DNA of 53,689 bases from a virus, in IMG/VR virus record IMGVR_UViG_3300037313_001510; one strand, written 5' to 3'. Below the pieces are notes generated by a model, which was not told the origin of the DNA, did not search any database, and was given only the letters and a program-made list of their open reading frames with translations. This document shows positions 3,594-53,689 of this stretch, one piece after another. The number at the start of each line of letters is the position of its first letter. Position 1 is the stretch's first letter. A program made the translations under genes and the position numbers.

Positions 3594-4580
3594 CTAGGCG
3601 GTGGGCGACACGCGCCGGGAGCCGAGGGACCGAATAGGCTTTTCGATCAGCTCATAGGACGCGCAGGCAATCAGCCAGGAGGACGCGCTGACGAAAATGA
3701 AGAGCGGAAGTGGCGAGACCTTGCCGGCCAGCACCAACACAATCGGATAGTGCCAAAGATAGATCGAGTAGGAAATCTCACCCGTATAAGCCAGTTGACG
3801 GGGCAAGAGCCCGGAATTTCGCGCCATAGCCGAGATCAGAACAGCGGCCAACAGATCGACCGCAAGAGGCGTGACTGTGAGCGTACTCGCCGAATAGAAC
3901 GGAGCCAAAGCAGCGATGACGATCAACGCCGCACCCGCCACGAATGCCCACCTTCTTGCGACCGCGAACGCCGCGAAAGCGCCGGCCGAGCCAATGGCCA
4001 GTCCGCTCAGATTGGTGTCGAAGCGATAGAAGGTCCGATAAAAATCGGACCAGATCAGTGCATCGGACCACCGCCATGCCGTTGCCAAAAACCAGAATGC
4101 CACCAGGATCAGGAACGCTTGACGACGCGGAAGACGTGCCAGCACCAGGATCGCCAGCGGCCAAACCAGATAGAAATGCTCCTCGACCGCAAGGCTCCAT
4201 GTGTGGATGAGGAAAAACGGCTCCTGCCAGAACGCTACCGAATAGTCGGATAGATATAGGCCCGCCAGGAGCACGTCGCGCGCTGCGTTGGTTACTGGGA
4301 AGACGAACGGCGAGACGAGCGCATAGGCGGCCAGCATCAACATCAGCGGCGGCCATAGGCGCCCGGCGCGTCGAAAATAGAACCTGACGAGATCGATGCC
4401 GCCGGTGCGGTCGAATTCTCCCAGCAAGTGGCCGGTGATTAAATAGCCCGACAGGACGAAGAACACCTCGACGCCAATCCATCCGCCTGCCGAGGCAAAC
4501 GGCAGGTGGTGGCAATGAAACGCCACGACCGAATACGCGGCTACCGCCCGAAGTCCGTCGAAAGACCTGTTACGGTCCAT
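3594..4580 (-). CDS. Acyltransferase family 3 integral membrane protein (O-antigen/polysaccharide O-acetyltransferase-like)
   Basis: N-terminal FDGLRAVAAYSVVAFH motif, VFFVLSGYLIT, and about 10 predicted TM helices. Confidence 0.8.
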   Translation of the reverse strand: MDRNRSFDGLRAVAAYSVVAFHCHHLPFASAGGWIGVEVFFVLSGYLITGHLLGEFDRTGGIDLVRFYFRRAGRLWPPLMLMLAAYALVSPFVFPVTNAARDVLLAGLYLSDYSVAFWQEPFFLIHTWSLAVEEHFYLVWPLAILVLARLPRRQAFLILVAFWFLATAWRWSDALIWSDFYRTFYRFDTNLSGLAIGSAGAFAAFAVARRWAFVAGAALIVIAALAPFYSASTLTVTPLAVDLLAAVLISAMARNSGLLPRQLAYTGEISYSIYLWHYPIVLVLAGKVSPLPLFIFVSASSWLIACASYELIEKPIRSLGSRRVSPTA

Positions 4581-19198: not shown

Positions 19199-19539
19199 AG
19201 CCTGTCCTCCGATAACTGCTTGGCGAGGGCGGCCCATTCGGCAGCCGAAAGTCGAACGGTGACGGTTTCGCCGCAATAGGTCTGCTGGCAATCAAGAGGC
19301 GCGGCCTGCATCTTCCCCTTTTGAGGGGCCAAGTTGCAGTAGTTGTTGCAGTTCTCATCGCCGGGCGTGCATCGGCCGGGCCTGCCCTTGTCGGAAGCGT
19401 GACCACAGATGTAGCAGCCGTCCACCGTCTTCGGATCACCGCGCACCGTGATGACAACGGCACCGTCGTCGGCGATTGTGACATTGATATAGCCCGGGAA
19501 AAGCTGATCAAGTTTCGTGTAGGCAACGACATTGCTCAT
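19195..19539 (-). CDS. Cys-rich protein, 114 aa (7 Cys)
   Basis: Start reset to MSNVVAY, giving an ATGA overlap with the stop of the 915-aa gene. Confidence 0.55.
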   Translation of the reverse strand: MSNVVAYTKLDQLFPGYINVTIADDGAVVITVRGDPKTVDGCYICGHASDKGRPGRCTPGDENCNNYCNLAPQKGKMQAAPLDCQQTYCGETVTVRLSAAEWAALAKQLSEDRL

Positions 19540-22283: not shown

Positions 22284-22285
22284 GA

Positions 22286-23317
22286 TCAGGCGGAGCGCTT
22301 GCCGAGCATCAAGGTCTTCGGACGCGTGCAGATCGACAGCACATTGGACTGGCTGTCGAGGTTGACGCCCTTGCCGTTGTCCATCAGGAACTGCTTGGCA
22401 TACATGCGCTGGCCGATGGTGTTGACGGTCTCCATGTAGTCGCCCGGGGCGAAATAGGAGCGGAACAGGTTGGGCACGCCGATCGGCGCCAAGTGGCATT
22501 TGTCGGGGTTGACGAAGGCCGTATTGCCAACGGCGCCACGATAGTTTTCCCAGACGATGCCGCCGAACTCGAAAGCACCGTAGATCTTGTCGCCATTGGG
22601 CAGCACGTAGCCGGCGCGCAGCACGGCGGCCATGTCGGTGTTGAGGAAGCTCTTCACCACTTCGACATTGCCAAGCAGATCGTCGAAGAAATCACTGCCG
22701 CATTCTGCAAGCACGCCTTGATAAGGCAAGCCGCCGAGATTGTCGGCGATCTTGCGGACAACGCCGGCGCACTTCTTGCGCAGCGCGCCGGAAACCGGAT
22801 TCGCGTTGGCGAGATCGAAGGCAATTTCGGTTTCCTGGGAGACGCCGAACGCGTCGAAGAGGTTGACAGTCGATCCGTCGGCATAGGTGACGATGCCCTT
22901 GTAGGCGCCGATGCGGGCATATTCGATGGTCGCTTCCATCGACTGCGAATGGACAGCGAGCCTGTCGGCAACCTTGCCCATCACGGTTTCGACTTCGGAC
23001 ATCGAGCCCCAGGCGCGGACGTTCTGCACCTCATCGGCCATGACCGCGTCGTTGATCTCGAAATGCGGCACGACGAACGGGCGCACGGTGCGCAGCGGCT
23101 TGTCAAGGGTTTTGCCGGGGCCGCCGCGCGCCGTCGGCTCGATCAGGCTGAGGATGCCGTCGCGCTCCTCGATGACTGCGGTGGTGGTGGTGATGCCGCT
23201 TTCCTGAAACAGGCCGAGCTGACCGAGACGACCGGGCACGAACTTCAGCTTGTTGATGGAGTCGGTGAGCGAGACGACGCTGAAGGCATCGTCATTGAAA
23301 ACGTCGAGCATGGGCAT
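22286..23317 (-). CDS. Major capsid protein, lambda gpE family
   Basis: N-terminus MPMLDVFNDDAFSVVSLTDSINKLKFVPGRLGQLGLF is typical of the gpE family. Lies after the decoration gene. Confidence 0.85.
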   Translation of the reverse strand: MPMLDVFNDDAFSVVSLTDSINKLKFVPGRLGQLGLFQESGITTTTAVIEERDGILSLIEPTARGGPGKTLDKPLRTVRPFVVPHFEINDAVMADEVQNVRAWGSMSEVETVMGKVADRLAVHSQSMEATIEYARIGAYKGIVTYADGSTVNLFDAFGVSQETEIAFDLANANPVSGALRKKCAGVVRKIADNLGGLPYQGVLAECGSDFFDDLLGNVEVVKSFLNTDMAAVLRAGYVLPNGDKIYGAFEFGGIVWENYRGAVGNTAFVNPDKCHLAPIGVPNLFRSYFAPGDYMETVNTIGQRMYAKQFLMDNGKGVNLDSQSNVLSICTRPKTLMLGKRSA

Positions 23318-31856: not shown

Positions 31857-32746
31857 ACGAACATCCCCACCTGCTCGTCGTATCGCTCACGCGTCTTAGC
31901 CGACCTGCGATAGTCGGCAAATGGCGTCTTTCGCCAGATCATCGGCGAGTTCGCCCAGCGAGCCACGTCGCGCAGGAGCTGCTCATTCCAGTCGAAACGT
32001 GGATGCGGCCGGCGCTCAAGGGAGTTTAGCTTCATGAACGGCTGGACGTGCGGTTCGCCGCCCCAGGCCATCACCTCGCCGATGCGCTGCATGCATGCTT
32101 CGAAGGGTTCGTTCCCGATCAGGACATAGACGCGTTTCTGTCGGGGCGACACACCGGCAAGCATGCGCATGACACGCTCGACAAACGGACGTTCCGCCAT
32201 GTCGTCATACGCAAACCGCCACGGACCTCGATTGATGGTCTTCCATCGCGCGTAGACGTCATCGTCGAACGTGCGTGGCTCGAATCCGCTGTTGGCATCG
32301 AGCAGAGGCACGCCGGCCGACATGTAGCGCGCCACGATGTGTTCCTGATAATCAGCGGGCAAGGCCGATAGGTTGTTGTCGCACAGCACAGGCCGAACCG
32401 GGAAATCCGGCAGCAGCGTGAACGCCTTGCCCTCCATCTTCGGCACGATGCAGAACCAGCAGCCGACCGGACAGCCACGGCTGGCGATCGTCGCCATCGG
32501 ATTGTGCCGTGCGACGACGTCGTCGATCGAACCACCGATTTCGGCCACATCGGCAAGGAAGTGCTTGCGCGTGAAGACGCCAGGGCCGCCAACCCGCACG
32601 TTCAGGCCATCAGCGCGATGCCAGCAGGCGCGCTGATAGGCGTCGTTAAGACGCCACGTGAAGGCCACTGAAATAAAGGCGGTGTCGCCTTCGATCCATT
32701 CGGCAATACCGCCCGACCAACGGCCAAGATCATAACCGTTGCTCAC
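31853..32746 (-). CDS. Radical-SAM-like enzyme, 297 aa
   Basis: CxxxCxxC cluster ASRGCPVGCWFCIVP (codons at 32450-32473), followed by VLCDNNLSAL, which resembles the DDNF motif of Elp3/B12-type radical SAM enzymes. Confidence 0.6.
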   Translation of the reverse strand: MSNGYDLGRWSGGIAEWIEGDTAFISVAFTWRLNDAYQRACWHRADGLNVRVGGPGVFTRKHFLADVAEIGGSIDDVVARHNPMATIASRGCPVGCWFCIVPKMEGKAFTLLPDFPVRPVLCDNNLSALPADYQEHIVARYMSAGVPLLDANSGFEPRTFDDDVYARWKTINRGPWRFAYDDMAERPFVERVMRMLAGVSPRQKRVYVLIGNEPFEACMQRIGEVMAWGGEPHVQPFMKLNSLERRPHPRFDWNEQLLRDVARWANSPMIWRKTPFADYRRSAKTRERYDEQVGMFV

Positions 32747-34686
32747 TCCGCCGCCTCCAGCACCAGCTCACGGCGCACGTTGCATTGTGCCAAAAGCTCG
32801 ATCATGCGCGGCGGCACGCTGTTGCCGACTAGGTGATATTTCTCCGTCTTGGTCAGCCGGCGCTTCCTGCCGTCGATCGTGATCTCGGCCGGCAACGCGC
32901 CAGGCCTGAAGCCATGCGCGGCCGCGCCCTCCTCCGGCTCCAGCATGCGGATGCCGATGTCGTCGATGTAGTGGCGCACGCCCTTGACGATCACCTCGAC
33001 GAGGCCGTAGCGCGCCTTGCCGGTCAGCGCGCCGAGCGGCTGGCGCACGTCGTCGTCCTGCTTGCCCGAGCCGAAATAGTGCTGCAGGAAGCCGAGGATC
33101 AGATGAGCATGGCTGCCGCCGGCCGCGATCGTCGCCAGCGGCTCCTCGATCGGCCGCCCATCCTGGTTGGTGCCATGCAGGTTGCCGAGCGTCGCCGCGA
33201 CGACGCCCTGCGTCGAGCCGAGCGTGACGATGGTCGACACAGGATCCTCGGCCGAGCGACCCGGCGCGCCGGTGTTATGCTGCGCCAGGAAGGCCGCCAC
33301 AAGCGCCGCCTTGCTGCCGCCGACCTGCGTGCCCGCCGGCTCCTCGAGGTCGAGCACGCGCGGCGCCTGCCCTTCCCGCTCGCCATAGCCGGTCTGGATC
33401 AGGCTGGCCGCCACCACCGCATGCCGCGGCGCGCCGGCCATGACCGTGTCGAGCGGCTCGGTCGGCATGGTGCCGACGCCGTTCTGGTTGAATTTCGTTA
33501 GATGCGCGGCGACCAGCAGCCGATCTTCCTTGCCCGTCGTCGTGCCGAGCGGCTCGGCGAGGTCGCGCGGTGCCGATTGTGCGGCACGCCCACCGGCGCC
33601 GACGATGGTCGCGCCAAGCACCGCCATCCCCGACGATGTGTGCAGCGTGTTGATCGGCTCTTCGGCCGAATTGACGCCGTTGCGCGCCGCCGCGCTCTGC
33701 TGGTCCGTGCGAATCAGGACCGGCGCCACCACGGCCATCTCGCCGCGATGCGCGGCGGTCAGCGTGCGCAGCGGTTCCGCCGCGTCGTGCACGCGGTCGT
33801 CGCCGGCATGGGTGATCGGCACGATGAACGGCTTTGCCGCGTCGACGACGTAGCGCATCACGCCGCGCGCCGTGCGCCGCAGCGTCGCCTCGGCCAGCGG
33901 CTTCTTGCGCCCGAAGATCGACTTCACCGGCAGCGACCAGTCGATGATCGTGTGCGCGCCGACCCACGGCTTCAGGCCGAGTCGCTTCGCCTCCTTACGC
34001 GGCGCATGCGTGCGCGCCGGCCACACGATCGACCGGCCATCCGCCTGGGCGATGCCGAAGAAGCGTTTCCTGATCGTCGGCACGCCATAGTCGGCGCAGA
34101 CCAGCACGCGGTGCTCGAAATTGTAGCCGAGGCCGCGCATATGCTTCAGCCAGGCGCGCCAGATCCGGCCCTTGTGGCGCGGGTCCGGGATCAGCCATTG
34201 CTCGGCGACCGGCACCCGCTCGCCCTTGGCCGCGACTGACCCGTCGAGCCGCAGCACGCGCCCGCTCGCCGGGTCGCGCTTGGCGATCAGCGGCCCCCAG
34301 GTGGTGATCTCCTGCACATTCTCCATGGTGATGGTCTCGGGCCGCACGGTGCCCGCCCAGCGGCAGATCACCCACGCCAGCGAGCGCCGCCGCTTCGACA
34401 CCGGCTTCGAGCCCTTGGCGACGGAGAAATGCGTGCAGTCGGGCGAGGCGTGCATCGCGCGTACGCCGCGCCCGGCAGTCACCTTGCGGGGATCGGCCTC
34501 GAACACGTCGCAGCGCAGGTGCCTGGTGTGCGGATGCCGCCTCTCGTGCACAGCGACCGCGACCGGATCGTGGTTGATGGCGACATGGACATGGAAGCCG
34601 GCATCCTCCAGCCCGTCGCAGCCACCGCCCATGCCGGCGAACAGCACGACCGTCATGCGATTGTCGAGCGAAAATGGTGCGTTCAT
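32743..34686 (-). CDS. DNA (cytosine-5) methyltransferase with about 8 tandem TRD-like modules, 647 aa
   Basis: Motif I LFAGMGGG, IV SPDCTHFS, VI ENV, VIII TIRKRFF, X GNSVPP. The variable region carries repeated E-P-x-x-T-(L/I/V) modules. Confidence 0.85.
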   Translation of the reverse strand: MNAPFSLDNRMTVVLFAGMGGGCDGLEDAGFHVHVAINHDPVAVAVHERRHPHTRHLRCDVFEADPRKVTAGRGVRAMHASPDCTHFSVAKGSKPVSKRRRSLAWVICRWAGTVRPETITMENVQEITTWGPLIAKRDPASGRVLRLDGSVAAKGERVPVAEQWLIPDPRHKGRIWRAWLKHMRGLGYNFEHRVLVCADYGVPTIRKRFFGIAQADGRSIVWPARTHAPRKEAKRLGLKPWVGAHTIIDWSLPVKSIFGRKKPLAEATLRRTARGVMRYVVDAAKPFIVPITHAGDDRVHDAAEPLRTLTAAHRGEMAVVAPVLIRTDQQSAAARNGVNSAEEPINTLHTSSGMAVLGATIVGAGGRAAQSAPRDLAEPLGTTTGKEDRLLVAAHLTKFNQNGVGTMPTEPLDTVMAGAPRHAVVAASLIQTGYGEREGQAPRVLDLEEPAGTQVGGSKAALVAAFLAQHNTGAPGRSAEDPVSTIVTLGSTQGVVAATLGNLHGTNQDGRPIEEPLATIAAGGSHAHLILGFLQHYFGSGKQDDDVRQPLGALTGKARYGLVEVIVKGVRHYIDDIGIRMLEPEEGAAAHGFRPGALPAEITIDGRKRRLTKTEKYHLVGNSVPPRMIELLAQCNVRRELVLEAAE

Positions 34687-35231
34687 CGTTCCGCCTTCAG
34701 CCATGCGCCAAAGCTCGCGCGCAGCGCTTTCCACGCGTGCGCCGCCCTGGCGTCTTCGTTGAGTTCCGCGCGCGAGGTCACCCCGAGGATCGAGCGCACC
34801 TTCTGCGCCGCGCGCTCATTGTTCAGCGGCGGCTCGAGCCCGTGCCGCTCCGCCAGGAATTGCTGGAAGCGCCGCTCCGCGCATTTGATCGCGCATTCGG
34901 CGGCGAAATCCTTCGGGTCGCGCACAGGCGCGTTACTTGCCTCGTCGAAGGCCTGGCCGGCCTTCAACTCGCGGATCGCGGCAAAGGCCTGGTCGAGCAG
35001 GGTGAGCAGGAAGCCGACATAGTCGGGCGCATCGGCCATGAAGATCACTTCCGCAACGCTCGCCGCATCGAACCGTGCCAGCACGAAGCGCTCGCCATTG
35101 CCGGCCTCGGCCTCGATCAGCGCGCCGTTCTCGTCATGCGCGCGCGTCCACCGTGCCGGCGCGATCGCCGCATAGGCCGTGCGGACCGCCTTGAGACGGG
35201 CAGCATCGGGCGAGCGCGCGGCGGCATTCAT
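34683..35231 (-). CDS. Hypothetical protein, 182 aa
   Basis: Start reset to MNAAARS. ATGA-coupled on both sides. Confidence 0.55.
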   Translation of the reverse strand: MNAAARSPDAARLKAVRTAYAAIAPARWTRAHDENGALIEAEAGNGERFVLARFDAASVAEVIFMADAPDYVGFLLTLLDQAFAAIRELKAGQAFDEASNAPVRDPKDFAAECAIKCAERRFQQFLAERHGLEPPLNNERAAQKVRSILGVTSRAELNEDARAAHAWKALRASFGAWLKAER

Positions 35232-36860: not shown

Positions 36861-37687
36861 GCCGCACCGCCAGTCTCGCGTTCGGCGAGCAGGTCAACGA
36901 ACCAGAATTTCTCGACCTTGCGGATGTCGACAGCGGCAATATTTTCGATGATGAAGCGTCGGATGTCGCGCCGGTGAATCCACCAGAAATCGTCCGTGGC
37001 TGTCGCGTCCCGCCGTTTCGCCCGCAGCCAGCCCTTGGCGATCCATCCGCTTACGGTCTTACGGTCGACGCCCATGACGCCAGCAAGCTGGTTGGCGTTG
37101 AGATGATGCGGATCGGTGCGATCGGCGCCGAGCCGCTTCAGCTTGACGACGATCGCCGTCTCGGTCCGCTCGAATCCCTGCTTTTTCAGGAGCCGCCGCA
37201 GCGAGGCCGGCGATTTGTGAGCATTCTCGCCGAGCAGGTCGAGTTCGGCCTCGCTCCATGGCGGCTGCTTGAAGCGCGGCGTCACCAGGCCGAGTTTCGC
37301 CGCCCGTTTCGAGATCCACCAGCGCGGCCGGCCGCAGGTCGCGGCGCAAGCCTGCACGTCTTTCTTGGTCGGCGTCTTCTGGTAGGCGCGGCGTATGATA
37401 TCGTCGATCGCGGCGCTCGACGCCCACGCCTGCCGCTCATTGACCTTGCCGTTGGCGCAGGGGATGCGAAGACCAAGGATCGCCGCGCGCTGATAGATCG
37501 ACGACGCCGAGCGCCCTGGGAGCACCGCCAGGCAGGCCGAGACGCCGCCGGTCGCGTAATGCTCGCGCAGCAGCTTTTCCTCGCGTCCGGTCCAGAACCG
37601 CCGGGCTCCGGCGCGCATTTCGCCGACGACCGGATTGAGGTCGAGCAATTCGCGGATACCGCCGACTTCGCGCGCGATGGCGTTCAT
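36857..37687 (-). CDS. DNA-binding protein with two SANT/Myb-like repeats and a MerR/excisionase-type HTH, 276 aa
   Basis: WTGREEKLLREHY and WSEAELDLLGENA repeats. HTH segment LNANQLAGVMGVDRKTVSGWIAKGWL. Confidence 0.5.
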   Translation of the reverse strand: MNAIAREVGGIRELLDLNPVVGEMRAGARRFWTGREEKLLREHYATGGVSACLAVLPGRSASSIYQRAAILGLRIPCANGKVNERQAWASSAAIDDIIRRAYQKTPTKKDVQACAATCGRPRWWISKRAAKLGLVTPRFKQPPWSEAELDLLGENAHKSPASLRRLLKKQGFERTETAIVVKLKRLGADRTDPHHLNANQLAGVMGVDRKTVSGWIAKGWLRAKRRDATATDDFWWIHRRDIRRFIIENIAAVDIRKVEKFWFVDLLAERETGGAA

Positions 37688-39111
37688 GCCGGCACCTCGC
37701 CGGCGGCTTCGATGAGGCGCCCAAGCTCAGCCAAGCGCTTGGCGCCGCCGACCGAGAGTTCCCGGCCGGCCCAGATCAGGCCGCGTTCCTTCAGCATTTC
37801 GAACAGTTTGCCGTCGCATTTCGCGCCGGCTGCCACCGCCGAGAGCAGATCGAATTCGGCGCGCTCGTCGGTCATCACCGATGGGCGAATGGAAAGGGAC
37901 GCCGGTACGGCAAGCGGCTGCGGGGATGCCGTGGCCTCGCCCTCCTCCGCCGGGCCGAACATCGTGGCGTTCTCGAACACCTTCCAGTCGACGCGCAGCA
38001 CCTCGTGCGGGCCGTCATAGGCTTCCGAGCCGTCCGGCTGAGGCCGCAGCTCCCAGACGAACCAGGCGGTGTTCATGCGGCTCGACGCCTCCGGGCCGTC
38101 CCAGCCGTCGCGGTGCATCATCGGCAGGCGCCGGCTGAAGACGTAGGTCATCGCTGGCGGATTGTCGTCGAGGGCAAAGCAGCGGTCGGGATCGTCGAAG
38201 CCGCACAGGAAATTCAGGTTCAGCAGCAACGCCATGCGGCGCGGCCGGTGCGCGCGCAGCGCATGCGCGACGAAGGCGTTGAGATCGGTGCCATAGGGCG
38301 GATTGGTGACAATGTCCGGCCGCTCCGGATCGTCGGCGCGCGCCGCGCTGGCGAGAAAATTCTCGACGCGCTGCAATTCGCCGTCCTTGGTCGCGGTGCC
38401 ATAGTCGACCAGGTCGGCAAGCTCGACCTCGTAGCCGGCATCTTCCAGCATGCGGCTGATCGCGCCCTTGCCGCAGGCCGGCTCCAGCACACACTTCGAA
38501 AACCGCATGAAGGAGAGCAGCGTGCGCATCGCCTCCGGCGGCGTCTCGTAAAGGTTGTTGCCGCGCTCGGCGGCGGTGGCGCTGTCGGTGCCGACGGCGG
38601 CGCGCAGGTTGGCGGCACGCTTGAGCCCTGCCCGCGTCGGTTCGCTGCCGGCTGCCAGCATCTGGTCGAGCGCGCGGCGCACGATGCCAGGATCCTGTTC
38701 GATGACGTCGCGCATCTGGCGCGCCTCGAACACTTCCTTGCGGGTAAGCCCGGCATCTTCGGCTGTCGGAACCTTGTTCTCGGCCGGAACAAGGTCGGTG
38801 CGCTGGCCCTTCCTGCCGATCTCGCCGCGTCCCTGTGCGGCATCATATTCATCGGCCAGCCGGCGCTTCGCCATGCTTTCGATTTCGAGCGAGTCGGCCT
38901 GCACGCGATAGGTCGCGGCGATCAGCTCGTCATGCGCACGCTTGGCCTTCTGCAGGCGAGCCGTGCGCTTGGCCGCGTCATAGGTGGCCGTCGCCATGTC
39001 GCGCGCGGCCAGCACCTCAGCGGCGCTGGTGGCGCGCGCGAGCGCCGCCGCCGCCTCTTTCACCAGAGACGGCAGCGGCTTCTGTTCGGCGGTGGTGACA
39101 GCTTTTGACAT
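37684..39111 (-). CDS. DNA amino-methyltransferase (N6-A or N4-C), 475 aa
   Basis: Motif I VLEPACGKGAIS lies about 60 aa before motif IV IVTNPPYG. Long N- and C-terminal extensions. Confidence 0.75.
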   Translation of the reverse strand: MSKAVTTAEQKPLPSLVKEAAAALARATSAAEVLAARDMATATYDAAKRTARLQKAKRAHDELIAATYRVQADSLEIESMAKRRLADEYDAAQGRGEIGRKGQRTDLVPAENKVPTAEDAGLTRKEVFEARQMRDVIEQDPGIVRRALDQMLAAGSEPTRAGLKRAANLRAAVGTDSATAAERGNNLYETPPEAMRTLLSFMRFSKCVLEPACGKGAISRMLEDAGYEVELADLVDYGTATKDGELQRVENFLASAARADDPERPDIVTNPPYGTDLNAFVAHALRAHRPRRMALLLNLNFLCGFDDPDRCFALDDNPPAMTYVFSRRLPMMHRDGWDGPEASSRMNTAWFVWELRPQPDGSEAYDGPHEVLRVDWKVFENATMFGPAEEGEATASPQPLAVPASLSIRPSVMTDERAEFDLLSAVAAGAKCDGKLFEMLKERGLIWAGRELSVGGAKRLAELGRLIEAAGEVPA

Positions 39112-45861: not shown

Positions 45862-46308
45862 ATGGAAGACAGGATCACTCACCTGACCGCCGACATCGTC
45901 TCGGCCTATGTCTCGAACAACGCGGTTCCGGCCGCCCAGCTGCCGGCGCTGATCGCCAGCGTCGATGCTTCCGTGCGCGGCCTGGGCGGTGCCGCTGCGG
46001 CCAAGCCGGCCGCATCCTTGGTGCCGGCCGTCAACCCGAAGCGCTCGATCTTCCCCGACTTCATCATCTGCCTTGAGGACGGGAAGAAATTCAAGTCGCT
46101 GAAGCGCCACCTCGCTACCGACCATGGCCTGACGCCGGAAGCCTATCGCGAAAAATGGGGCCTGCCCGCCGACTATCCAATGGTGGCGCCTAACTACTCC
46201 AAGACGCGCTCGGCGCTGGCCAAGGCCTCCGGCCTCGGCCGCGTCGGCAAGCCCTACGCCACCACGCGCCTGGACCTGTCCTCCGAAGCTGGCCGCAGGG
46301 TGGCGTAG
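45862..46308 (+). CDS. mucR: MucR/Ros-family zinc-finger transcriptional regulator
   Basis: IICLEDGKKFKSLKRHLATDHGLTPEAYREKWGLPADYPMVAPNYS. The second zinc ligand is Asp (CLEDG), as in some Mesorhizobium Ml paralogues. Confidence 0.85.
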   Translation: MEDRITHLTADIVSAYVSNNAVPAAQLPALIASVDASVRGLGGAAAAKPAASLVPAVNPKRSIFPDFIICLEDGKKFKSLKRHLATDHGLTPEAYREKWGLPADYPMVAPNYSKTRSALAKASGLGRVGKPYATTRLDLSSEAGRRVA

Positions 46309-47462: not shown

Positions 47463-48226
47463 GCGACCGCCCCATCCTTTTTTCCGCCCCGATGGTGCGC
47501 GCCCTGCTCGCCGGCAGGAAGACGCAGACGCGGCGCGTGCTTCGGGCAAGGCCAGGCATGACCATCGCCGACGCCACGGTCGACGCCGGCCCAGCCTTCG
47601 GCGGGATCGGCAGGCGGCTGGAATTGCCAGTCGATAAGCTGAAGGTGCCCTTCGCCGTGGGCGACCGCCTCTATGTCCGCGAGGCTTGGGCGACAGGCAG
47701 CGGCCCGAACGGACCACAGATCAGTTTCCGGGCGACACCGGATTTCTTTGACATCGACGCATGGGACGGTCCTAACGAAGGGGTAGGCCCGTCGTTCAAC
47801 TATGATCATTGCCCCTGCGCCCATTTTCACCACTGGCTGCCGGACATCCTTTCCAATGATGGGCCATGGCGCACGCCGCTACACATGCCGCGCTGGGCTT
47901 CCCGCCTGACGCTGACCGTCACCGGGGTGCGCGTCCAGCGGCTGCAGGAGATCACCAACGAGGACTGCATCGCCGAAGGCGTTGATATCCATCCCAACGA
48001 AAATGCCCCTCGCATCGGCCCCGTGCTGGATGATTTTGCTCGGAAGCACGGTCTCATTTCTCACTATGGCGCACAGTATCGCGACCTGTGGGATCACCTC
48101 AACGCCGCGCGCGGCTTCGGCTGGGATGCCAACCCGTGGGTGATTGCCGTCAGCTTCGGCGTGGGTCGTCACAACATCGACGCCCACAATCCAACATCAG
48201 TTGCAACCAGAAGGAAACCAGCATGA
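47459..48226 (+). CDS. ASCH/PUA-like phage protein (tentative), 255 aa
   Basis: N-terminus PILFSAPMVRALLAGRKTQTRR is a common phage ASCH-like signature. GTG start. Confidence 0.55.
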   Translation: MSDRPILFSAPMVRALLAGRKTQTRRVLRARPGMTIADATVDAGPAFGGIGRRLELPVDKLKVPFAVGDRLYVREAWATGSGPNGPQISFRATPDFFDIDAWDGPNEGVGPSFNYDHCPCAHFHHWLPDILSNDGPWRTPLHMPRWASRLTLTVTGVRVQRLQEITNEDCIAEGVDIHPNENAPRIGPVLDDFARKHGLISHYGAQYRDLWDHLNAARGFGWDANPWVIAVSFGVGRHNIDAHNPTSVATRRKPA

Positions 48227-49152
48227 CAAGCGCAGTCCTGAAATCCATTGCCTCGCCGTCGATCCTGACCAAGGCCGATCCAACCAGCCCGGCCTTTCGC
48301 GTCGAAGGCCGGAACCGCATCTTCCTCAAGGCAGGCACGGTGATTGCCTTCGGCGCCGGCGGCGTCGAAAATCAGTCCGACCACGAGATCGCGATGCATG
48401 CGGGGGACCTGGTTGCCGGCCGCGACTTTGCCGTCTTCGCCAGCGACGAAGGCGTGGTGACGGCGGCGCCGGCCGGCGATGGCGTCGCCGAAGGCCTGAT
48501 CCAGATTGGCGGCTTCCATTACGCGCCGGGCGGCAACGCCACCGGCCGCTCGGGCGGCGACGGCGAGCCGGCCATCAATCCCTATTCATGCTGGGATTTG
48601 ACCTTCCGCCCGGCATGCCCGGATCCGCACGGCATGACGCTGGTCGACTTGCCGGACGATCGCCGGATCTGGGTCGACATCTACAAGCTGAACGTCAACC
48701 ATCTCGCCGGCACAAGCCGTTTCGGCGTGACGATCGCCGATGGCGTCGACCTGCCGTTCCGCACCGACATTCCGGGCCATTGCGACAGGCTGGACTACGC
48801 GACCGCGGTCGCGATCTATGCGCATCATGGCAAGCAGTTGCTGTCCTATGACGAATTCCGCGCCGCCGCCTTCGGCGTCACCGAAAACACCAGCGCCGAG
48901 CGCGATCCAAAAATAACCGGGCTCGACGCCGCCCGCACCTCGCAGCGCGGCCTGATGCAGGCGACCGGCAATCTCTGGGATTGGGGCCATGACGGCGATC
49001 CGGACAATCCCCGCGCGTCCATTTTCGGCGGCTCGTGGTGGGACGGCGGCGACGCCGGCTCCCGCTACGCGTACCTCGGCAGCTGGCCGGGGAACTCGTG
49101 CGACAACATCTCCGCGCGCGGCCGCAGTGACCACCTGAAACCTGCCGCCTGA
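48223..49152 (+). CDS. DGR target protein, 309 aa, C-terminal C-type-lectin/FGE-like fold carrying the VR
   Basis: The C-terminus GNLWDWGHDG...IFGGSWWDGGDAGSRYAYLGSWPGNSCDNISARGRSD contains the VR. ATGA-coupled to the upstream gene. Confidence 0.85.
   Translation: MTSAVLKSIASPSILTKADPTSPAFRVEGRNRIFLKAGTVIAFGAGGVENQSDHEIAMHAGDLVAGRDFAVFASDEGVVTAAPAGDGVAEGLIQIGGFHYAPGGNATGRSGGDGEPAINPYSCWDLTFRPACPDPHGMTLVDLPDDRRIWVDIYKLNVNHLAGTSRFGVTIADGVDLPFRTDIPGHCDRLDYATAVAIYAHHGKQLLSYDEFRAAAFGVTENTSAERDPKITGLDAARTSQRGLMQATGNLWDWGHDGDPDNPRASIFGGSWWDGGDAGSRYAYLGSWPGNSCDNISARGRSDHLKPAA
49013..49131 (+). repeat. DGR variable repeat (VR), 119 bp
   Basis: Gap-free alignment to the TR (offset 574). There are 10 mismatches, all at TR adenines. 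Confidence 0.9.
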
Positions 49153-49170
49153 CCGGCGCGAAAGCGCCGG
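49153..49170 (+). promoter_or_regulatory. GC hairpin with GAAA loop downstream of VR (DGR target-recognition hairpin; possible terminator)
   Basis: CCGGCGC-GAAA-GCGCCGG, 1 nt after the target stop and 22 nt after the VR end. Confidence 0.7.
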
Positions 49171-49196
49171 TAGAACCGACAGCCCGGAAAATCGCC

Positions 49197-49568
49197 ATGG
49201 CCATCATACGCGACGAGCATGCGGCCACGCCCGGGCTAGCGATCATCGACAAATACGAGGAAGCCGTGACCTATCTCTACCCGATCCTGCAATGCTGCCC
49301 GCGCGCGCATGGCAATGTCCGTGACGCGATGATGGCCGGCTTGTTCGATCAGGTCGGCCTGTTCTACCAGGCGGCGAAATCGCGGCAGCCTTCACGTCTT
49401 TATGCGGCGGACGCCAACCTGGCGACGCTGCGTTTCTGGTTGCGCTTCGCATCCGATCCAAAGCTCAGGATCGTCACCCCGAACCAGAGCCGGCATGCGC
49501 ATCGCCTGCTGGCCGAGGTCGGCGCGATGCTGGGTCAATGGATCAAGGGCGCGAAGGGCAACGGATGA
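49197..49568 (+). CDS. avd: Accessory variability determinant (Avd-like four-helix-bundle protein), 123 aa
   Basis: Supported by size, its position between the target and the TR, and helical basic composition. Confidence 0.75.
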   Translation: MAIIRDEHAATPGLAIIDKYEEAVTYLYPILQCCPRAHGNVRDAMMAGLFDQVGLFYQAAKSRQPSRLYAADANLATLRFWLRFASDPKLRIVTPNQSRHAHRLLAEVGAMLGQWIKGAKGNG

Positions 49569-49586
49569 ACGGGGACATGATGCGGC

Positions 49587-49705
49587 GCGCATCCATTTTC
49601 GGCGGCTCGTGGTGGAACGGCGACAACGCCGGCTCCCGCTACGCGAACCTCGACAACTGGCCGGAGAACTCGAACGACAACATCTCCGCGCGCGGCCGCA
49701 GTGAC
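49587..49705 (+). repeat. DGR template repeat (TR), 119 bp
   Basis: AAC-rich donor copy of the VR with 24 adenines. A 14-nt G/C run lies at 49686-49699. Confidence 0.9.
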
Positions 49706-49900
49706 GGCCCATACCCGGCTCGGCGGCGGTCACGGCCACGCCGGCCCATCCACGTTGCGACATCCGCCTTGCGGCGGATGCGCATTGGTGGTCAGCCCGG
49801 TCATCCGGCTTCGGCGAACACATTGCACGGTCCGGTACAGCGGGGAGTAGCGGGCTTGCCCGTCGAAACCCGCGACCGGCAATTCAGCGGATGGCGACCC

Positions 49901-50911
49901 ATGGGCAAGAAGCACCGCAACCTCATCGGCGCGATCACCGCCGACGCCACCATGCTCGAGGCGCTGCGGCTGACCAGCCGAGGCAAGCGGCTGACGCCGG
50001 CGCGGCTGGAATTCAAGGAGTTTTCCATCCTCAACCTCGACCGCCTGGCGCATGACATGGCGAGCGGCGCCTACGTCCAGGGCGCGCCGCGCGAGTTCAA
50101 CATCTTCGATCCGAAGCTGCGCGTCATCTCGGCGCTGCCATTCCGCGACCGGATCGCCCAGCACGCCTTGTTCAAGATCATCGCGCCGATCTTCGAGGCG
50201 ACATTGCTGCCGAACACCTTCGCCTGCCGGCCGGGCAAGGGCACGCACGCCGCGGCGATCAGGCTGCAGGCCGACATACGGCGACTGACGCGCCGGCATG
50301 CGGACGGCAATGCCGCGCCGCTCTTCGTGCTCAAGACGGACTTTTCCAAGTATTTCGCGTCGATCGACCGCGCCGTGCTGTGGGGCTTGATCGAAGCGAA
50401 GATTAGCTGCGGCGCGACGCTGCGCCTGATCGAGGCGATGCTGCCGCGCCATGGAATCGGCCTGCCGATCGGCAGCCTAGTGTCGCAGATTTTCGCCAAT
50501 GTCTATGGCGGCATCGTCGACCGGCACCTGCAGCAGGATCTCGGCGAGCGTCACTGGTACCGCTACATGGACGACATGGTCGTGCTCGGCCGCTCCTCGG
50601 CGCATCTGCATGCGGTCAAGGCGTCGATCGAAACCCTCTCGCGCAACCAGCTCGGCTTGCGCTTTTCGAAATGGAGCATCCAGCCGGCAGGGCGCGGCGT
50701 CAACTTCGTCGGCTATCGCATCTGGGCCACGCATAAATTGCTGCGGCGCGACAGCGTCACCAGGGCGCGCCGCAAGATCAGGGCCTATCGCGCCGCCGGC
50801 GACGACGAGCGGCTGCACAGGTTCCTTGCCGCGTGGACGGGCCATGCCGGCTGGGCCGACAGCCGCAATCTCATGCGCAGCCTGGCGATCGAAGCGCGGG
50901 AGGACCGATGA
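49901..50911 (+). CDS. DGR reverse transcriptase, 336 aa
   Basis: RT motifs FRDRIAQHAL, IGSLVSQIFANVY (DGR-typical) and YRYMDDMVVLG. Confidence 0.9.
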   Translation: MGKKHRNLIGAITADATMLEALRLTSRGKRLTPARLEFKEFSILNLDRLAHDMASGAYVQGAPREFNIFDPKLRVISALPFRDRIAQHALFKIIAPIFEATLLPNTFACRPGKGTHAAAIRLQADIRRLTRRHADGNAAPLFVLKTDFSKYFASIDRAVLWGLIEAKISCGATLRLIEAMLPRHGIGLPIGSLVSQIFANVYGGIVDRHLQQDLGERHWYRYMDDMVVLGRSSAHLHAVKASIETLSRNQLGLRFSKWSIQPAGRGVNFVGYRIWATHKLLRRDSVTRARRKIRAYRAAGDDERLHRFLAAWTGHAGWADSRNLMRSLAIEAREDR

Positions 50912-51159
50912 TCGACGAGGCCCGAATCATCCCCCGTTTCATGACCGATGGCGAGCTGCGCGCCTGGTTCGGCCTGTCCGAGCGCGCGCTGAACCGGCTG
51001 CGCGCCACGCGCGAATTTCCCTGTCGTGACCAGCAGATCGGCAAGACCGACCGCCGCTCGGTCGAAGTTTTCTTTGACCGGCGCGCCGGTTTGGATTCTC
51101 CTGCCCTCGCCGGCGGCAATCCCGCCGCCGTCGATGGAAGGGAATATCTCGATGACTGA
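50908..51159 (+). CDS. AlpA/excisionase-type HTH protein (xis candidate), 83 aa
   Basis: MTDGELRAWFGLSERALNRLRATREFP. ATGA overlap with the RT stop. Its 3' end overlaps the int start. Confidence 0.6.
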   Translation: MIDEARIIPRFMTDGELRAWFGLSERALNRLRATREFPCRDQQIGKTDRRSVEVFFDRRAGLDSPALAGGNPAAVDGREYLDD

Positions 51160-52366
51160 ACAGAGAAAGGACCGGCCGGGCTACAAATACCGGCCGCGCT
51201 CCGACGGCAGCCGCGCTCACTACTGGGTGCCGCAACGCGCCGTGAAGCATGCGCCGGCAGCGCTCGACCCGCGGCCGATCACCGGGGCGATGATCGAGGC
51301 GGCGCTTGCCGCCGATCCAGACCTCGCCGATGCCGACGCCGCGATCGCAAAATTCTGCCGCGACTGGACCGATGAATTGCGCGGCGACCTCGAGGTGAGG
51401 GCGAAGGGGCCGGTCTATGACGGCTCGGTCTCCTCGCTGATCCTCTACTATCGCACGCATGAAAAATCGCCATTCAAGAAACTCAAGCATTCGACGCGTA
51501 TCCGCGACTATGAGCCGTCGCTGCGGCTGATAGCGAAAAGCGTCGGCGAGCGGCTGGTGCGCAACCTGGTCGGCTCGGATTTCACCCGCTGGTTCGAGTC
51601 CTGGGGCTCGAAGGGCCGCGCCAGGCGCGCCCACGGTGCGATCCGCAAGCTGCGCGCCGTGCTCTCCTTCGGCACTACCGAGCGACTGGACGGCTGCCGC
51701 CAGGCGCGCGAGATCCTGTCGCTGATGGAATTCGAGACGCCCGCCGCCCGCCGCGTCAAGATGGAGTACCGGCATGCGCTCAAGATCTGCGCCATGGCGA
51801 TACGGCTTGAGCGGCCATCGATCGCGCTCACCCAGGCGCTGCAGTGGGACACGGCGCTCAGACGCATCCACATCATCGGCGAGTGGCTGCCAATCGAGCA
51901 AGGCGAGGCCGGCGGCATCGTGCGCGGCCGCACCAAATGGCGCGGACTGACGGTGGCCGACATTTCGGGCAAGCAGGTGCTCACCGTGCCGCTGACCAGC
52001 AAGGGCAAGGACGCCACAGACCACGATCTCGGCAAGTGCGCGCTGGTGCAGATGGTGCTAAAACGGGTGAGGCTGCCCGCCTTCGGCCCGCTTATCGTCT
52101 CGGAAACCACCGGACTGCCTTACCGGGAAAACTATTACGCCACCGACTGGCGCGAGATCGCCACGGCGGCCGGCGTTCCCGAAACCGTCTGGTCGATGGA
52201 TGCGCGCGCCGGCGCGATCTCGGAAGCCGAGGAAGCGACCGACATCGAATCGGCCAGGAAAATGGCAGGCCACACCACGATCAAGACGACGCAAGGCTAC
52301 GTGAGAAACCGCGACCTCGCCAACAACGTCAAGGTCGCCGAAGCCCGCGCCAGGCTGAGGAAGTGA
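51152..52366 (+). CDS. int: Tyrosine integrase, 404 aa
   Basis: The C-terminal catalytic region MDARAGAISEA...AGHTTIKTTQGYV carries the R...H-x-x-R...Y pattern. Adjacent to attP. Confidence 0.85.
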   Translation: MTEQRKDRPGYKYRPRSDGSRAHYWVPQRAVKHAPAALDPRPITGAMIEAALAADPDLADADAAIAKFCRDWTDELRGDLEVRAKGPVYDGSVSSLILYYRTHEKSPFKKLKHSTRIRDYEPSLRLIAKSVGERLVRNLVGSDFTRWFESWGSKGRARRAHGAIRKLRAVLSFGTTERLDGCRQAREILSLMEFETPAARRVKMEYRHALKICAMAIRLERPSIALTQALQWDTALRRIHIIGEWLPIEQGEAGGIVRGRTKWRGLTVADISGKQVLTVPLTSKGKDATDHDLGKCALVQMVLKRVRLPAFGPLIVSETTGLPYRENYYATDWREIATAAGVPETVWSMDARAGAISEAEEATDIESARKMAGHTTIKTTQGYVRNRDLANNVKVAEARARLRK

Positions 52367-52390
52367 CACGGCAGTGACACGCGTGACACG
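52363..52390 (+). repeat. Three direct GTGACACG repeats (arm-type integrase site candidates)
   Basis: Copies at 52363-52370, 52374-52381 and 52383-52390. The first overlaps the int stop codon. Confidence 0.6.
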
Positions 52391-52437
52391 GCGCCCGATT
52401 TTTAAAGAGATTTCATCAACGTTTTCAGTTGGTTGGC

Positions 52438-52485
52438 TGGAGCGGGTAGCGGGAATCGAACCCGCATATTCAGCTTGGAAGGCTC
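52438..52485 (-). other. attP core: 3' about 48 nt of a tRNA-Gly(UCC) gene
   Basis: The - strand reads GAGCCTTCCAAGCTGAATATGCGGGTTCGATTCCCGCTACCCGCTCCA: anticodon loop CUUCCAA, T-arm, acceptor 3' strand, CCA. There is no D-arm or 5' acceptor strand. Confidence 0.75.
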
Positions 52486-52511
52486 CTGGAATTTCAATGA
52501 AATCAATGCGC

Positions 52512-52570
52512 CGTGTCACTCGGCCTTTTAGGCGTGTCAGAAGCGGGCGCGGTTTTCCGCCGCCGTGTCA
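52512..52570. repeat. Three inverted copies CGTGTCA(C) of the arm repeat on the other side of the core
   Basis: Copies at 52512-52519, 52533-52539 and 52564-52570. Confidence 0.55.
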
Positions 52571-53158: not shown

Positions 53159-53689
53159 ATGGCCGACACGCTTGGCGATTATCTGAAGGCACTCGAAGGC
53201 GTCGAGACCGGACGGCGCGCGCAGCCAGGACAAGCCGTCTATATCCGTATCGACGGCAACCGCTTCTCCAAGTTCACCAAGGGCATGGAGCGCCCGTTTG
53301 ATCCGCGCATGTCGGCGGCGATGATCGAGACCACGAAAGGGCTGGTGACTGAGTTCGGTGCCGCGCTTGGCTATACCCAGTCGGATGAGATTTCGTTGGT
53401 GCTTTGGGAAGACGCGCCGCAGAGCGAACTGGCCCACGGCGGCAAGTTTCAGAAGCTGGCGAGCCGCACGGCGTCAAAGGCCACGCATCTTTTCTACAAG
53501 GCGGCAAGGGCCGCTGGCTTGGTCGAATTCATCGACCGCCAGTTCCCCGAGTTCGACGCGCGCGCCTTCGCATTGAGCAAAGAGGATGCCGGCAAGGCCA
53601 TCTATTGGCGCGAGATGGATGCCAGAAAGAACGCGGTCCAGATGACGGCGCGTTGCCACTTCTCGGCCAAGGCCCTGCACCAGAAGCAT
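53159..53689 (+). CDS. Thg1-like protein (TLP), N-terminal 177 codons; continues at 128..379 after removing the overlap
   Basis: AGGAG SD. VYIRIDGNRFSKFTKGMERPFDPRMSAAMIETTKGLVTEFGAALGYTQSDEISLVLW matches the Thg1/TLP catalytic core (RIDG..F..FT...PFD...M..T......YTQSDEISL). Confidence 0.85.
   Translation, partial: MADTLGDYLKALEGVETGRRAQPGQAVYIRIDGNRFSKFTKGMERPFDPRMSAAMIETTKGLVTEFGAALGYTQSDEISLVLWEDAPQSELAHGGKFQKLASRTASKATHLFYKAARAAGLVEFIDRQFPEFDARAFALSKEDAGKAIYWREMDARKNAVQMTARCHFSAKALHQKH
53563..53689. repeat. Right copy of the 127-bp exact terminal duplication
   Basis: Identical to 1..127. Confidence 0.95.

Follow-up and report, generated by a model that had tools for sequence, protein, structure and literature searches.

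Does the segment between positions 48223 and 50911 of the IMG/VR record IMGVR_UViG_3300037313_001510 hold a complete diversity-generating retroelement (DGR), and what would such an element do for the phage that carries it? The window analyzed here is the whole stretch of viral DNA, 53,689 nucleotides long. A complete DGR had been proposed at this place in an original prediction made from the sequence by itself, and each of the components that define the class of Bordetella phage BPP-1 has now been checked and is present (Table 1). The parts follow one another in the canonical order of target gene with its variable region (VR), hairpin, avd, template repeat (TR), spacer RNA, and reverse transcriptase (RT), and the three open reading frames (target, avd, and RT) are all intact. 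The segment is very probably a complete BPP-1-class DGR, borne by a temperate siphophage whose host is probably Mesorhizobium. Judging from its sequence, the element is apparently intact and apparently functional. A search of the whole window found no second or remote VR. The device itself, by which a phage remodels the tip of a protein of the receptor-binding type, is already well known from BPP-1 and its family is large; the present locus adds a member.

Table 1. Parts of the retroelement and the features that follow it in the 53,689-nt window.
Feature	Position	Strand	Description
DGR target gene	48223..49152	+	309-aa homologue of Mtd (major tropism determinant); PDB 1yu3, PF21916, phrog_11262
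Variable region (VR)	49012..49131	+	Target codons 264-303; 120-nt gapless repeat of TR
IMH-like VR 3' end (putative)	49112..49146	+	(G/C)14 at 49112-49125, then AGTGAC common to TR, then divergence from 49132
GC-rich hairpin/cruciform	49152..49171	+	8-bp stem, GAAA loop; begins 21 nt past the end of TR/VR homology
avd, accessory variability determinant	49197..49568	+	123 aa; NF033474, Pfam bAvd, PDB 4dwl
Template repeat (TR)	49586..49705	+	24 adenines; seven AAC codons in the VR frame; (G/C)14 at 49686-49699
Spacer (Sp) of DGR RNA	49706..49900	+	Rfam Phage_DGR over 49758-49880
DGR reverse transcriptase	49901..50911	+	336 aa; 8ub7_A, phrog_1423, Pfam RVT_1
83-aa ORF	50908..51159	+	Overlaps the RT stop; possibly an excisionase-like DNA-binding protein
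Tyrosine integrase	51152..52366	+	phrog_1 integrase, 5.5e-12
attP-like region	52363..52519		Three direct and one inverted GTGACAC around a tRNA-like piece

The differences between the two repeats are confined to a single base of the template. VR and TR align without gaps over 120 nt and differ at 10 positions. The repeat had been described as 119 bp long (49013-49131 and 49587-49705); its gapless alignment is reproduced, but it extends one base further on the 5' side, to 49012 and 49586. Realignment of the two 119-bp segments returns exactly the 10 mismatches that had been listed, all of them at TR adenines (49591, 49616, 49623, 49625, 49646, 49653, 49656, 49665, 49673, and 49674), with eight changes from A to G and two from A to T. 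On recount, 10 of the 24 TR adenines are altered. A mismatch at any other TR base had been named as grounds for abandoning the claim, and re-inspection finds none among the 95 non-A positions. The probability that all 10 differences hit an adenine by chance is 1.8e-8 (hypergeometric; 24 A, 95 non-A). The changes are biased toward AAC codons, as had been noticed (6 of 10), and the other altered codons are two GAC, one GAG, and one silent GCA. Nearly all TR adenines (23 of 24) occupy codon position 1 or 2 in the VR frame, and no A substitution in the TR can lead to a stop codon. The TR and VR peptides given earlier match the translation.

This adenine-specific divergence is found throughout the family. 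A set of 122 related loci supplies 117 distinct TR/VR pairs, in which 48.9% of the TR adenines are changed, as against 1.1% of the non-A positions. The substitutions are A to G (52%), A to T (27%), and A to C (21%), a spectrum that the eight G and two T of the window fit. When 51 homologues of the target are compared, the mean VR codon entropy is 2.2 bits for codons with a TR adenine and 3.05 bits for AAC codons, versus 0.47 bits for the other VR codons, and the hypervariable columns coincide with the TR-adenine codons of the window. The TR-adenine codons situated 3' of the (G/C)14 tract, S302 and D303, are not variable among these 51 homologues, which is the expectation if transfer ends within the GC tract.

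The 14-nt run of G and C only, CCGCGCGCGGCCGC, can be read in the VR and in the TR where it had been reported. Beyond it, the repeats part ways from 49132 and 49706, so that the IMH and the IMH* are not identical. Alignment with the VR 3' end of BPP-1 shows that GTGACCACCTGA is conserved. The VR has a GC-rich IMH with a non-identical counterpart in the TR, and its part in homing is putative, read from sequence likeness. The 7-bp GC stem with a GAAA loop that had been proposed at 49153-49170 is real (CCGGCGC-GAAA-GCGCCGG), and inclusion of the A-T pair 49152/49171 lengthens it to 8 bp. Folded as DNA, the hairpin has a centroid energy of -11.9 kcal/mol (z=-2.98), and none of 200 shuffled sequences does as well. 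A hairpin/cruciform is required in BPP-1, and the reported ones, separated from the VR by 4-34 bp, have GC stems of 7-10 bp and GRNA loops (PMC3240598). The structure found here lies a short way past the VR and has a GC stem of that length and a GRNA loop of 4 nt. Of 139 VRs in relatives, 89 are followed within 80 nt by a 4-nt loop on a perfect stem of 6 bp or more, the loops being nearly all GRNA; downstream of the TR the same search gives 14 of 139, none with a GRNA loop. The hairpin is kept across relatives while the stem sequences vary.

The gene that has the VR at its 3' end is of the Mtd type, as both the sequence alignment and the predicted fold indicate. Residues 15-305 of the target align with residues 57-378 of Mtd, through the VR (PDB 1yu3, E=8.2e-50). 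The two proteins are 39-40% identical over both remaining domains, a beta-sandwich "Mtd second domain" and a C-terminal domain with the C-type-lectin fold. The target also matches Pfam PF21916 and belongs to phrog_11262, annotated as a tail protein (1.5e-80). A C-type-lectin/FGE fold had been expected of it, and the fold of the AlphaFold model (pTM 0.73) is that of Mtd (TM 0.68 to 1YU0; Foldseek matches to 1yu0-1yu4 with E~1e-21 and TMq 0.68), with low confidence over the VR, since the model is unreliable at residues 247-309. The ATG overlaps the stop codon of the upstream gene (ATGA) and is preceded by GAAGGAAA. The N-terminal domain of Mtd, of about 50 residues, is lacking, as it is in the listed homologues of about 300 aa. 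Because this domain is missing, we can only infer that the target is attached to the virion.

The Avd-like gene and the RT with IGSLVSQIFANVY and YMDD that had been proposed to complete the cassette are both there. Avd, whose gene lies after the target and before the TR, scores 109.8 bits with NCBIfam NF033474 (DivGenRetAVD; equivalog cut-off 80) and matches Pfam bAvd, PDB 4dwl (E=1.9e-28), and chain B of 8ub7. The spacer matches Rfam RF03022 with 73.6 bits (gathering score 50; E=9.6e-11). With this model the BPP-1 spacer scores 104.7 bits, and 10 of 11 scanned relatives are matched. Column mapping places the priming adenosine of BPP-1, Sp A56, at 49794, inside the conserved GGTGGTCAGCC, and the TR alignment places TR G117 and U118 at 49701 and 49702. 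Sp A56 and G57 and TR G117 and U118 are all conserved; their roles in BPP-1 are documented, TR G117 being the first base that is reverse-transcribed (PMC6182149). Read from the sequence, seven of the eight positions of Sp 49787-49794 can pair with TR 49702-49709. The locus has a structured spacer RNA that carries the predicted priming adenosine.

The RT is closest to bRT (PDB 8ub7_A, residues 1-325, E=1.1e-111, 376 bits); the next-best PDB match is the group II RT 6ar1 (2.8e-8, 37 bits). It also matches phrog_1423 (3.3e-105) and Pfam RVT_1. In region 4, DGR RTs have the motif (I/L/V)GxxxSQ rather than QGxxxSP (PMC3521204). The enzyme encoded here has the "SQ" motif as IGSLVSQ, together with YMDD, and residues R74 and I181 of bRT are conserved. 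Motif and bRT match place it in the DGR clade. A longer open reading frame, 49538-50911, which runs through the TR into the RT, was considered as a real gene and dropped because the alignment of the RT with bRT starts at its own methionine at 49901.

By analogy with BPP-1, a transcript comprising the 3' end of avd, the TR, and the spacer of about 195 nt would fold into the conserved DGR RNA and be bound by the RT-Avd complex. The cDNA would be primed from the 2'-OH of the spacer adenosine at 49794, begin at TR G49701, and proceed 5' through the TR, with template adenines miscopied about half the time and the non-A bases copied faithfully. This cDNA would then take the place of the VR in the Mtd-like gene, targeted there by the (G/C)14/IMH with which the VR ends and by the GAAA hairpin. 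Such a reaction would vary 14 codons (AAC in seven cases) on the ligand-binding face of the C-type-lectin fold and give up to ~3e12 protein variants, with stop codons in none. The switching of host-receptor specificity is the most likely role.

How close is the element to its model? In BPP-1 the gene order is the same, and the RT, Avd, and target are homologous to those of the window (E=1e-111, 2e-28, and 8e-50, respectively), the RT DNA being 66-67% identical. The RF03022 spacer RNA is common to both, with the priming A and the TR G/U conserved. In BPP-1, too, (G/C)14 closes both repeats, GTGACCACCTGA comes next in the VR, and the hairpin with its GAAA loop is at the same place; tract and hairpin agree with their BPP-1 counterparts base for base, and 9 of the 12 variable residues of Mtd are variable codons in the target of the window. 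In both phages the cassette lies at the att-proximal end of the genome and is transcribed toward attP. The differences are mainly around the cassette. The mtd gene of BPP-1 encodes 381 aa and comes after the tail fiber gene bbp9, whereas the shorter target of the window comes after a phrog_874 gene of unassigned role. The stretch from brt to attP contains endolysin genes in BPP-1; the corresponding stretch here, from RT to attP, contains xis/int. The carrier also differs: it is a siphophage whose tape measure protein has 1010 aa. From the annotated TR end to the brt start, the BPP-1 spacer measures 144 nt; that of the window measures about 195 nt, and the difference includes an extra hairpin on the 5' side. 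Finally, TR and VR diverge 6 nt past the GC tract, and thus the IMH and IMH* differ more in the window than in BPP-1.

Mtd/Avd DGRs with an RT identity of 72-85% are found in alphaproteobacterial prophages (Mesorhizobium, Rhizobium, Agrobacterium, Shinella, and others; genome and IMG/VR data). They likewise have Mtd-like targets of about 300 aa, some of them named "phage major tropism determinant" in UniRef. As here, the TR is about 120 nt long and precedes the RT by about 200-300 nt, the TR/VR mismatches are adenine-specific, and GRNA hairpins follow the VR. In many of these relatives mtd is repeated in tandem, as two or three paralogues that each have a VR, whereas the window has one. In the nearest relative, L001 (M. 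norvegicum), a VR x TR deletion has removed avd, whereas the window keeps it. Conservation does not extend to the flanking genes: 4 of the 122 loci have the p255 gene, and 9 have the integrase of the window. Only 4 of the 122 loci carry the phrog_874 gene that lies upstream, and it was therefore rejected as a conserved partner of the DGR. A complete BPP-1-class DGR is added for a phage of a nitrogen-fixing-symbiont lineage (Mesorhizobium-like), and the biochemically defined cis elements of BPP-1 (priming adenosine, cDNA start, GC tract, and GAAA hairpin) can be mapped in it to the single base. By analogy, the BPP-1 mechanism would carry over unchanged to a large family of alphaproteobacterial prophages. 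Existing knowledge of DGRs is unaltered, and a second tractable system is on offer.

Could the repeat be an ordinary segmental duplication, or the RT that of a group II intron or retron lying by chance beside it? The RT does give weak scores with such families (90.7 bits with the group II model TIGR04416, cut-off 300; 40.1 with retron St85, cut-off 235), but these are far below the curated NCBIfam cut-offs. The original prediction had accepted that grouping with group II or retron RTs would speak against it. The profile comparison prefers bRT (E=1e-111 vs 2.8e-8 for group II, 376 vs 37 bits), so this test does not refute it. In Rfam, neither intron RNA domains nor retron msr/msd are matched, whereas the Phage_DGR RNA is, and membership of the RT in these groups was rejected. 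With the motif IGSLVSQ instead of QGxxxSP (PMC3521204) and the P of 1.8e-8 for mismatches all on A, this explanation is already refuted and retains practically no probability. It is also very improbable that a once-active DGR has become a fixed relic, its parts recognizable, its homing ceased, and its VR frozen. The VR is identical in the available independent assemblies: the exact target protein, sole member of its 90% cluster, is on nine JGI contigs, and two Logan assemblies from other runs have the VR of the window. Decay does occur in the lineage, L001 being without avd. However, the assemblies may all stem from one clonal lysogen. The Logan contigs retrieved by exact-protein look-up break at a 31-nt word shared by TR and VR, and one of them stops at 49016, immediately short of the first variable site (49017). 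This last break is unexplained by any 31-mer common to TR and VR and hints at VR heterogeneity in the sample. A search of metagenome and viral collections, from which the source contig itself is evidently absent, with a flank pattern and a TR-derived pattern (N at each adenine) gave 0 matches. The VR has no difference at the 95 non-A positions, though between close relatives the orthologous TRs are about 12% divergent, which argues for recent homing; and the ORFs, catalytic motifs, priming site, GC tract, and hairpin are all intact. The element is presumably active today.

A functional DGR could also have a target other than the receptor-binding protein of the virion, namely a product of the early or lysogenic strand such as a lysogen-surface or soluble factor. 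The cassette is outside the tail module, after small early-type genes and before xis/int. It shares the + strand with cI-like, ROS/MucR, xis, and int genes, and the head, tail, and lysis genes are all on the opposite one. Directly upstream is the phrog_874 gene, not a tail fiber gene, and the first ~50 residues of Mtd are missing. Yet both remaining domains resemble those of Mtd, and the PHROG family is annotated as a tail protein. In a gammaproteobacterial relative (L020), the homologue comes directly after a gene for a gpJ-type central tail fiber, and the cassette of BPP-1 is also att-proximal and transcribed toward attP. We consider a non-virion target unlikely, and a virion protein that switches receptor specificity is preferred. 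An N-terminally truncated Mtd-like target that belongs to an operon of the early or lysogeny side beside xis/int, here and in the alphaproteobacterial relatives, may act unlike the Mtd of BPP-1, either as a detachable tail-docking adaptor or as a protein made by the lysogen. This is quite improbable; if true, it would take the use of DGRs by phages beyond classical tail-fiber tropism switching.

The carrier is an otherwise undescribed temperate siphophage. INPHARED has no phage that resembles the rest of the genome, and megablast matches of the window to deposited phages are confined to methyltransferase genes. The 83-aa ORF that follows the RT has no family match in NCBIfam, Pfam, or PHROG; it is among the genes called on Logan contig L124. 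ARAGORN detects no complete or partial tRNA at the tRNA-like piece of the attP-like region, and neither does Rfam. The piece (52440-52490, minus strand) resembles the 3' half of a tRNA and, examined by eye, may be Gly-UCC-like.

The window element is a complete diversity-generating retroelement (DGR) of the class of Bordetella phage BPP-1, whose reference DGR comprises Mtd, Avd and bRT, and it is new to a large, well-described family. The original prediction of a complete DGR at 48223-50911 was correct: the reverse transcriptase (RT), the accessory variability determinant (Avd), the target gene, the template repeat (TR) and variable region (VR), the spacer RNA (Sp), the GC tract and the hairpin are all found. 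The RT, which carries IGSLVSQ, the DGR “SQ” motif (PMC3521204), as well as YMDD, is of the DGR type as proposed, and group II intron and retron RTs are far behind, their curated cut-offs being widely missed. Alignment shows that bRT residues R74 and I181 are kept. The Avd-like gene exceeds the NCBIfam Avd equivalog cut-off, and its product also matches the Avd structures 4DWL and 8UB7. The Rfam model found between TR and RT also has matches in the BPP-1 spacer (104.7 bits) and in 10 of 11 relatives that were scanned.

Features of the DGR cassette and of the region 3' of the integrase gene
Feature	Coordinates	Strand	Remarks
Target gene	48223-49152		309 aa; Mtd crystal-structure match, E=8e-50
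VR	49012-49131	+	120-nt gapless repeat of TR
TR	49586-49705		
Hairpin	49152-49171		8-bp stem counting the closing A-T pair; GAAA loop
Avd	49197-49568		NCBIfam equivalog model, 109.8 bits vs cut-off 80
Spacer RNA	49758-49880		Rfam Phage_DGR RF03022, 73.6 bits vs gathering score 50
RT	49901-50911		bRT match (bRT-Avd-RNA structures, 8UB7 series), E=1e-111, from the first RT residue
GTGACAC, direct copies	52363, 52374, 52383		3' of the integrase stop codon
GTGACAC, inverted copy	52513-52519		
tRNA 3'-half-like piece	52440-52490	-	T-arm GCGGGTTCGATTCCCGC; flanked by GTGACAC copies

VR and TR align without gaps as predicted, over a repeat one base longer than first given, and there is no further copy elsewhere in the 53.7-kb window. 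Exactly 10 positions differ, all at the TR adenines predicted, with VR carrying G at eight of these and T at two. Given a TR composition of 24 adenines and 95 other bases, the probability of 10 random mismatches all falling on adenines is 1.8e-8. In the target reading frame, 23 of the 24 TR adenines occupy the first or second codon position; there are seven AAC codons, and a stop codon cannot arise by substitution of any adenine. The coding capacity is about 2.8e12 peptides counting 14 effective codons, and 4.5e13 once the last two TR-adenine codons (S302 and D303) are included.

Near their 3' ends, VR and TR share the predicted 14-nt run of G and C only, CCGCGCGCGGCCGC, followed in both by AGTGAC, beyond which they diverge. 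The hairpin 3' of VR is borne out by DNA folding, with a centroid energy of -11.9 kcal/mol that 0 of 200 shuffled sequences equal. In both the window and BPP-1, VR is followed by GTGACCACCTGA and then by a GC stem with a GAAA loop. Guo et al. (PMC3240598) showed this structure to be necessary for homing and described GC stems of 7-10 bp with GRNA loops, located 4-34 bp from VR. Alignment of the TR-spacer region with BPP-1 (locus L123) places A49794, inside the conserved GGTGGTCAGCC, opposite Sp A56, and G49795 opposite Sp G57, while G49701 and T49702 are the counterparts of TR G117 and U118. In BPP-1, the 2'-OH of Sp A56 primes cDNA synthesis and TR G117 is the first base copied (PMC6182149). 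By direct inspection of the sequence, seven of the eight positions of Sp 49787-49794 are able to pair with TR 49702-49709, one pair being U-A where BPP-1 has a U-C mismatch. By analogy, the mechanism is predictable from BPP-1 almost base for base.

Residues 15-305 of the target align to Mtd residues 57-378, so that the match passes through VR. Its profile matches include the Pfam “Mtd second domain” and a PHROG whose annotation is tail protein. With 51 homologues as input, AlphaFold gave a model of pTM 0.73, for which the five Mtd entries are the only significant Foldseek matches (E ~1e-21, TM 0.68, 39-40% identity). Residues 247-309 are not reliably modelled, which is expected given a hypervariable alignment and a native protein that is an intertwined trimer. 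Unlike BPP-1 Mtd, the target does not have the first ~50 residues, and the homologues listed are typically of this shorter form (about 290-330 aa). In a gammaproteobacterial relative (L020), the target homologue directly follows a gpJ-type fibre gene. The target is presumably located on the virion.

RT scans yielded a family of 42 genomic and 80 viral loci. The closest RTs are from Mesorhizobium norvegicum (85% identity) and Mesorhizobium sp. B2-3-4 (84%); those of Rhizobium, Agrobacterium, Shinella and others come next. In nearly all loci, TR lies about 200-300 nt 5' of the RT with one to three VRs further upstream, and mismatches are adenine-specific. The 117 distinct TR/VR pairs, chosen on the basis that at least 75% of their mismatches are at A, have 48.9% of TR adenines altered vs 1.1% of non-A bases, with a spectrum of 52% A-to-G, 27% A-to-T and 21% A-to-C. 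The window, with 42% of TR adenines changed (eight to G and two to T), is typical of the family. Of 139 VRs, 89 have, within the next 80 nt on the 3' side, a 4-nt loop closed by a perfect stem of 6 bp or more; the loop is nearly always GRNA, and the stem sequence varies by locus. The identical search 3' of TRs finds 14 stems in 139, none with a GRNA loop. Among the 51 target homologues, mean entropy is 3.05 bits at the AAC codons of the window, 2.2 at all TR-adenine codons, and 0.47 at the remaining VR positions. S302 and D303, whose codons lie 3' of the GC tract, are conserved in this alignment, as expected if information transfer stops within the tract.

Several family loci differ in their target genes. 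Two tandem mtd paralogues occur in each of L002, L003, L004, L007 and L034, and three in L041. In most of these loci, though not L007, each copy comes with a VR and a GRNA hairpin of its own, and the copies are all templated by one TR; the window has a single target only. In the M. norvegicum locus (L001 4894-7011; NZ_SMYZ01000064.1), whose RT is the one with 85% identity, mtd ends in a VR/TR hybrid with a VR-like 5' flank and a TR-like 3' flank; there is no avd, and the spacer RNA and RT lie immediately downstream. The locus is the product of a VR x TR recombination deletion, and its DGR is dead.

All 95 non-A positions are identical between VR and TR, even though close relatives show ~12% difference between orthologous TRs; this argues for recent homing. 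The exact target sequence forms a singleton cluster and is on nine JGI contigs, and two Logan assemblies have the same VR as the window. Scans of metagenome and viral collections for VR variants gave 0 matches, and none to the window itself. Assemblies built from k-mers end at shared words, and the Logan contigs with the same VR end at a 31-nt word common to VR and TR (49101-49131). Another Logan contig (L128, SRR35144446) stops at 49016, immediately before the first variable site (49017), and no 31-mer shared by VR and TR accounts for this break. For that sample, the break hints weakly at a heterogeneous VR.

By PHROG and Pfam scans, the carrier is a temperate siphophage, and none of the deposited phages resembles its genome. 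The minus strand carries genes for endolysin, an O-antigen acetylase, tail proteins (including a 1010-aa tape measure protein), the major tail protein, portal and terminase, along with replication and methyltransferase genes. The plus strand, from about 43.7 kb, has a cI-like gene, ROS/MucR, small ORFs, a phrog_874 protein, the DGR, a small xis-like ORF and the integrase. In BPP-1, mtd follows the tail fibre gene, whereas the window cassette is separated from the tail module and lies on the other strand. Only two features are mildly unusual, the truncated target and the position of the cassette beside xis/int, and other members of the wider family share both.

At the attP-like region, the GTGACAC repeats, the partial tRNA-like piece and the absence of a complete tRNA point to the attP of a non-integrated genome, and 52363-52519 is probably this attP with integrase arm sites. 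Just past it, an ORF running off the window end (53159-53689, +) has a Thg1-like tRNA-His guanylyltransferase domain (PF04446, E=2.9e-25) and apparently encodes a Thg1-like protein carried by the phage. The gene at 19536-22499 (-), located between portal and tail genes, encodes a 987-aa protein with a C-terminal SAM-dependent methyltransferase domain and the PHROG label sialyltransferase; no major capsid protein is recognisable near this gene. Accessory cargo at 3594-4580 (-), 32743-34734 (-), 37684-39111 (-) and 45862-46308 (+) comprises an O-antigen acetyltransferase moron, two large DNA methyltransferases and a ROS/MucR-family regulator. One of the large methyltransferase genes has ~82% DNA identity to genes of Rhizobium phage PPF1.
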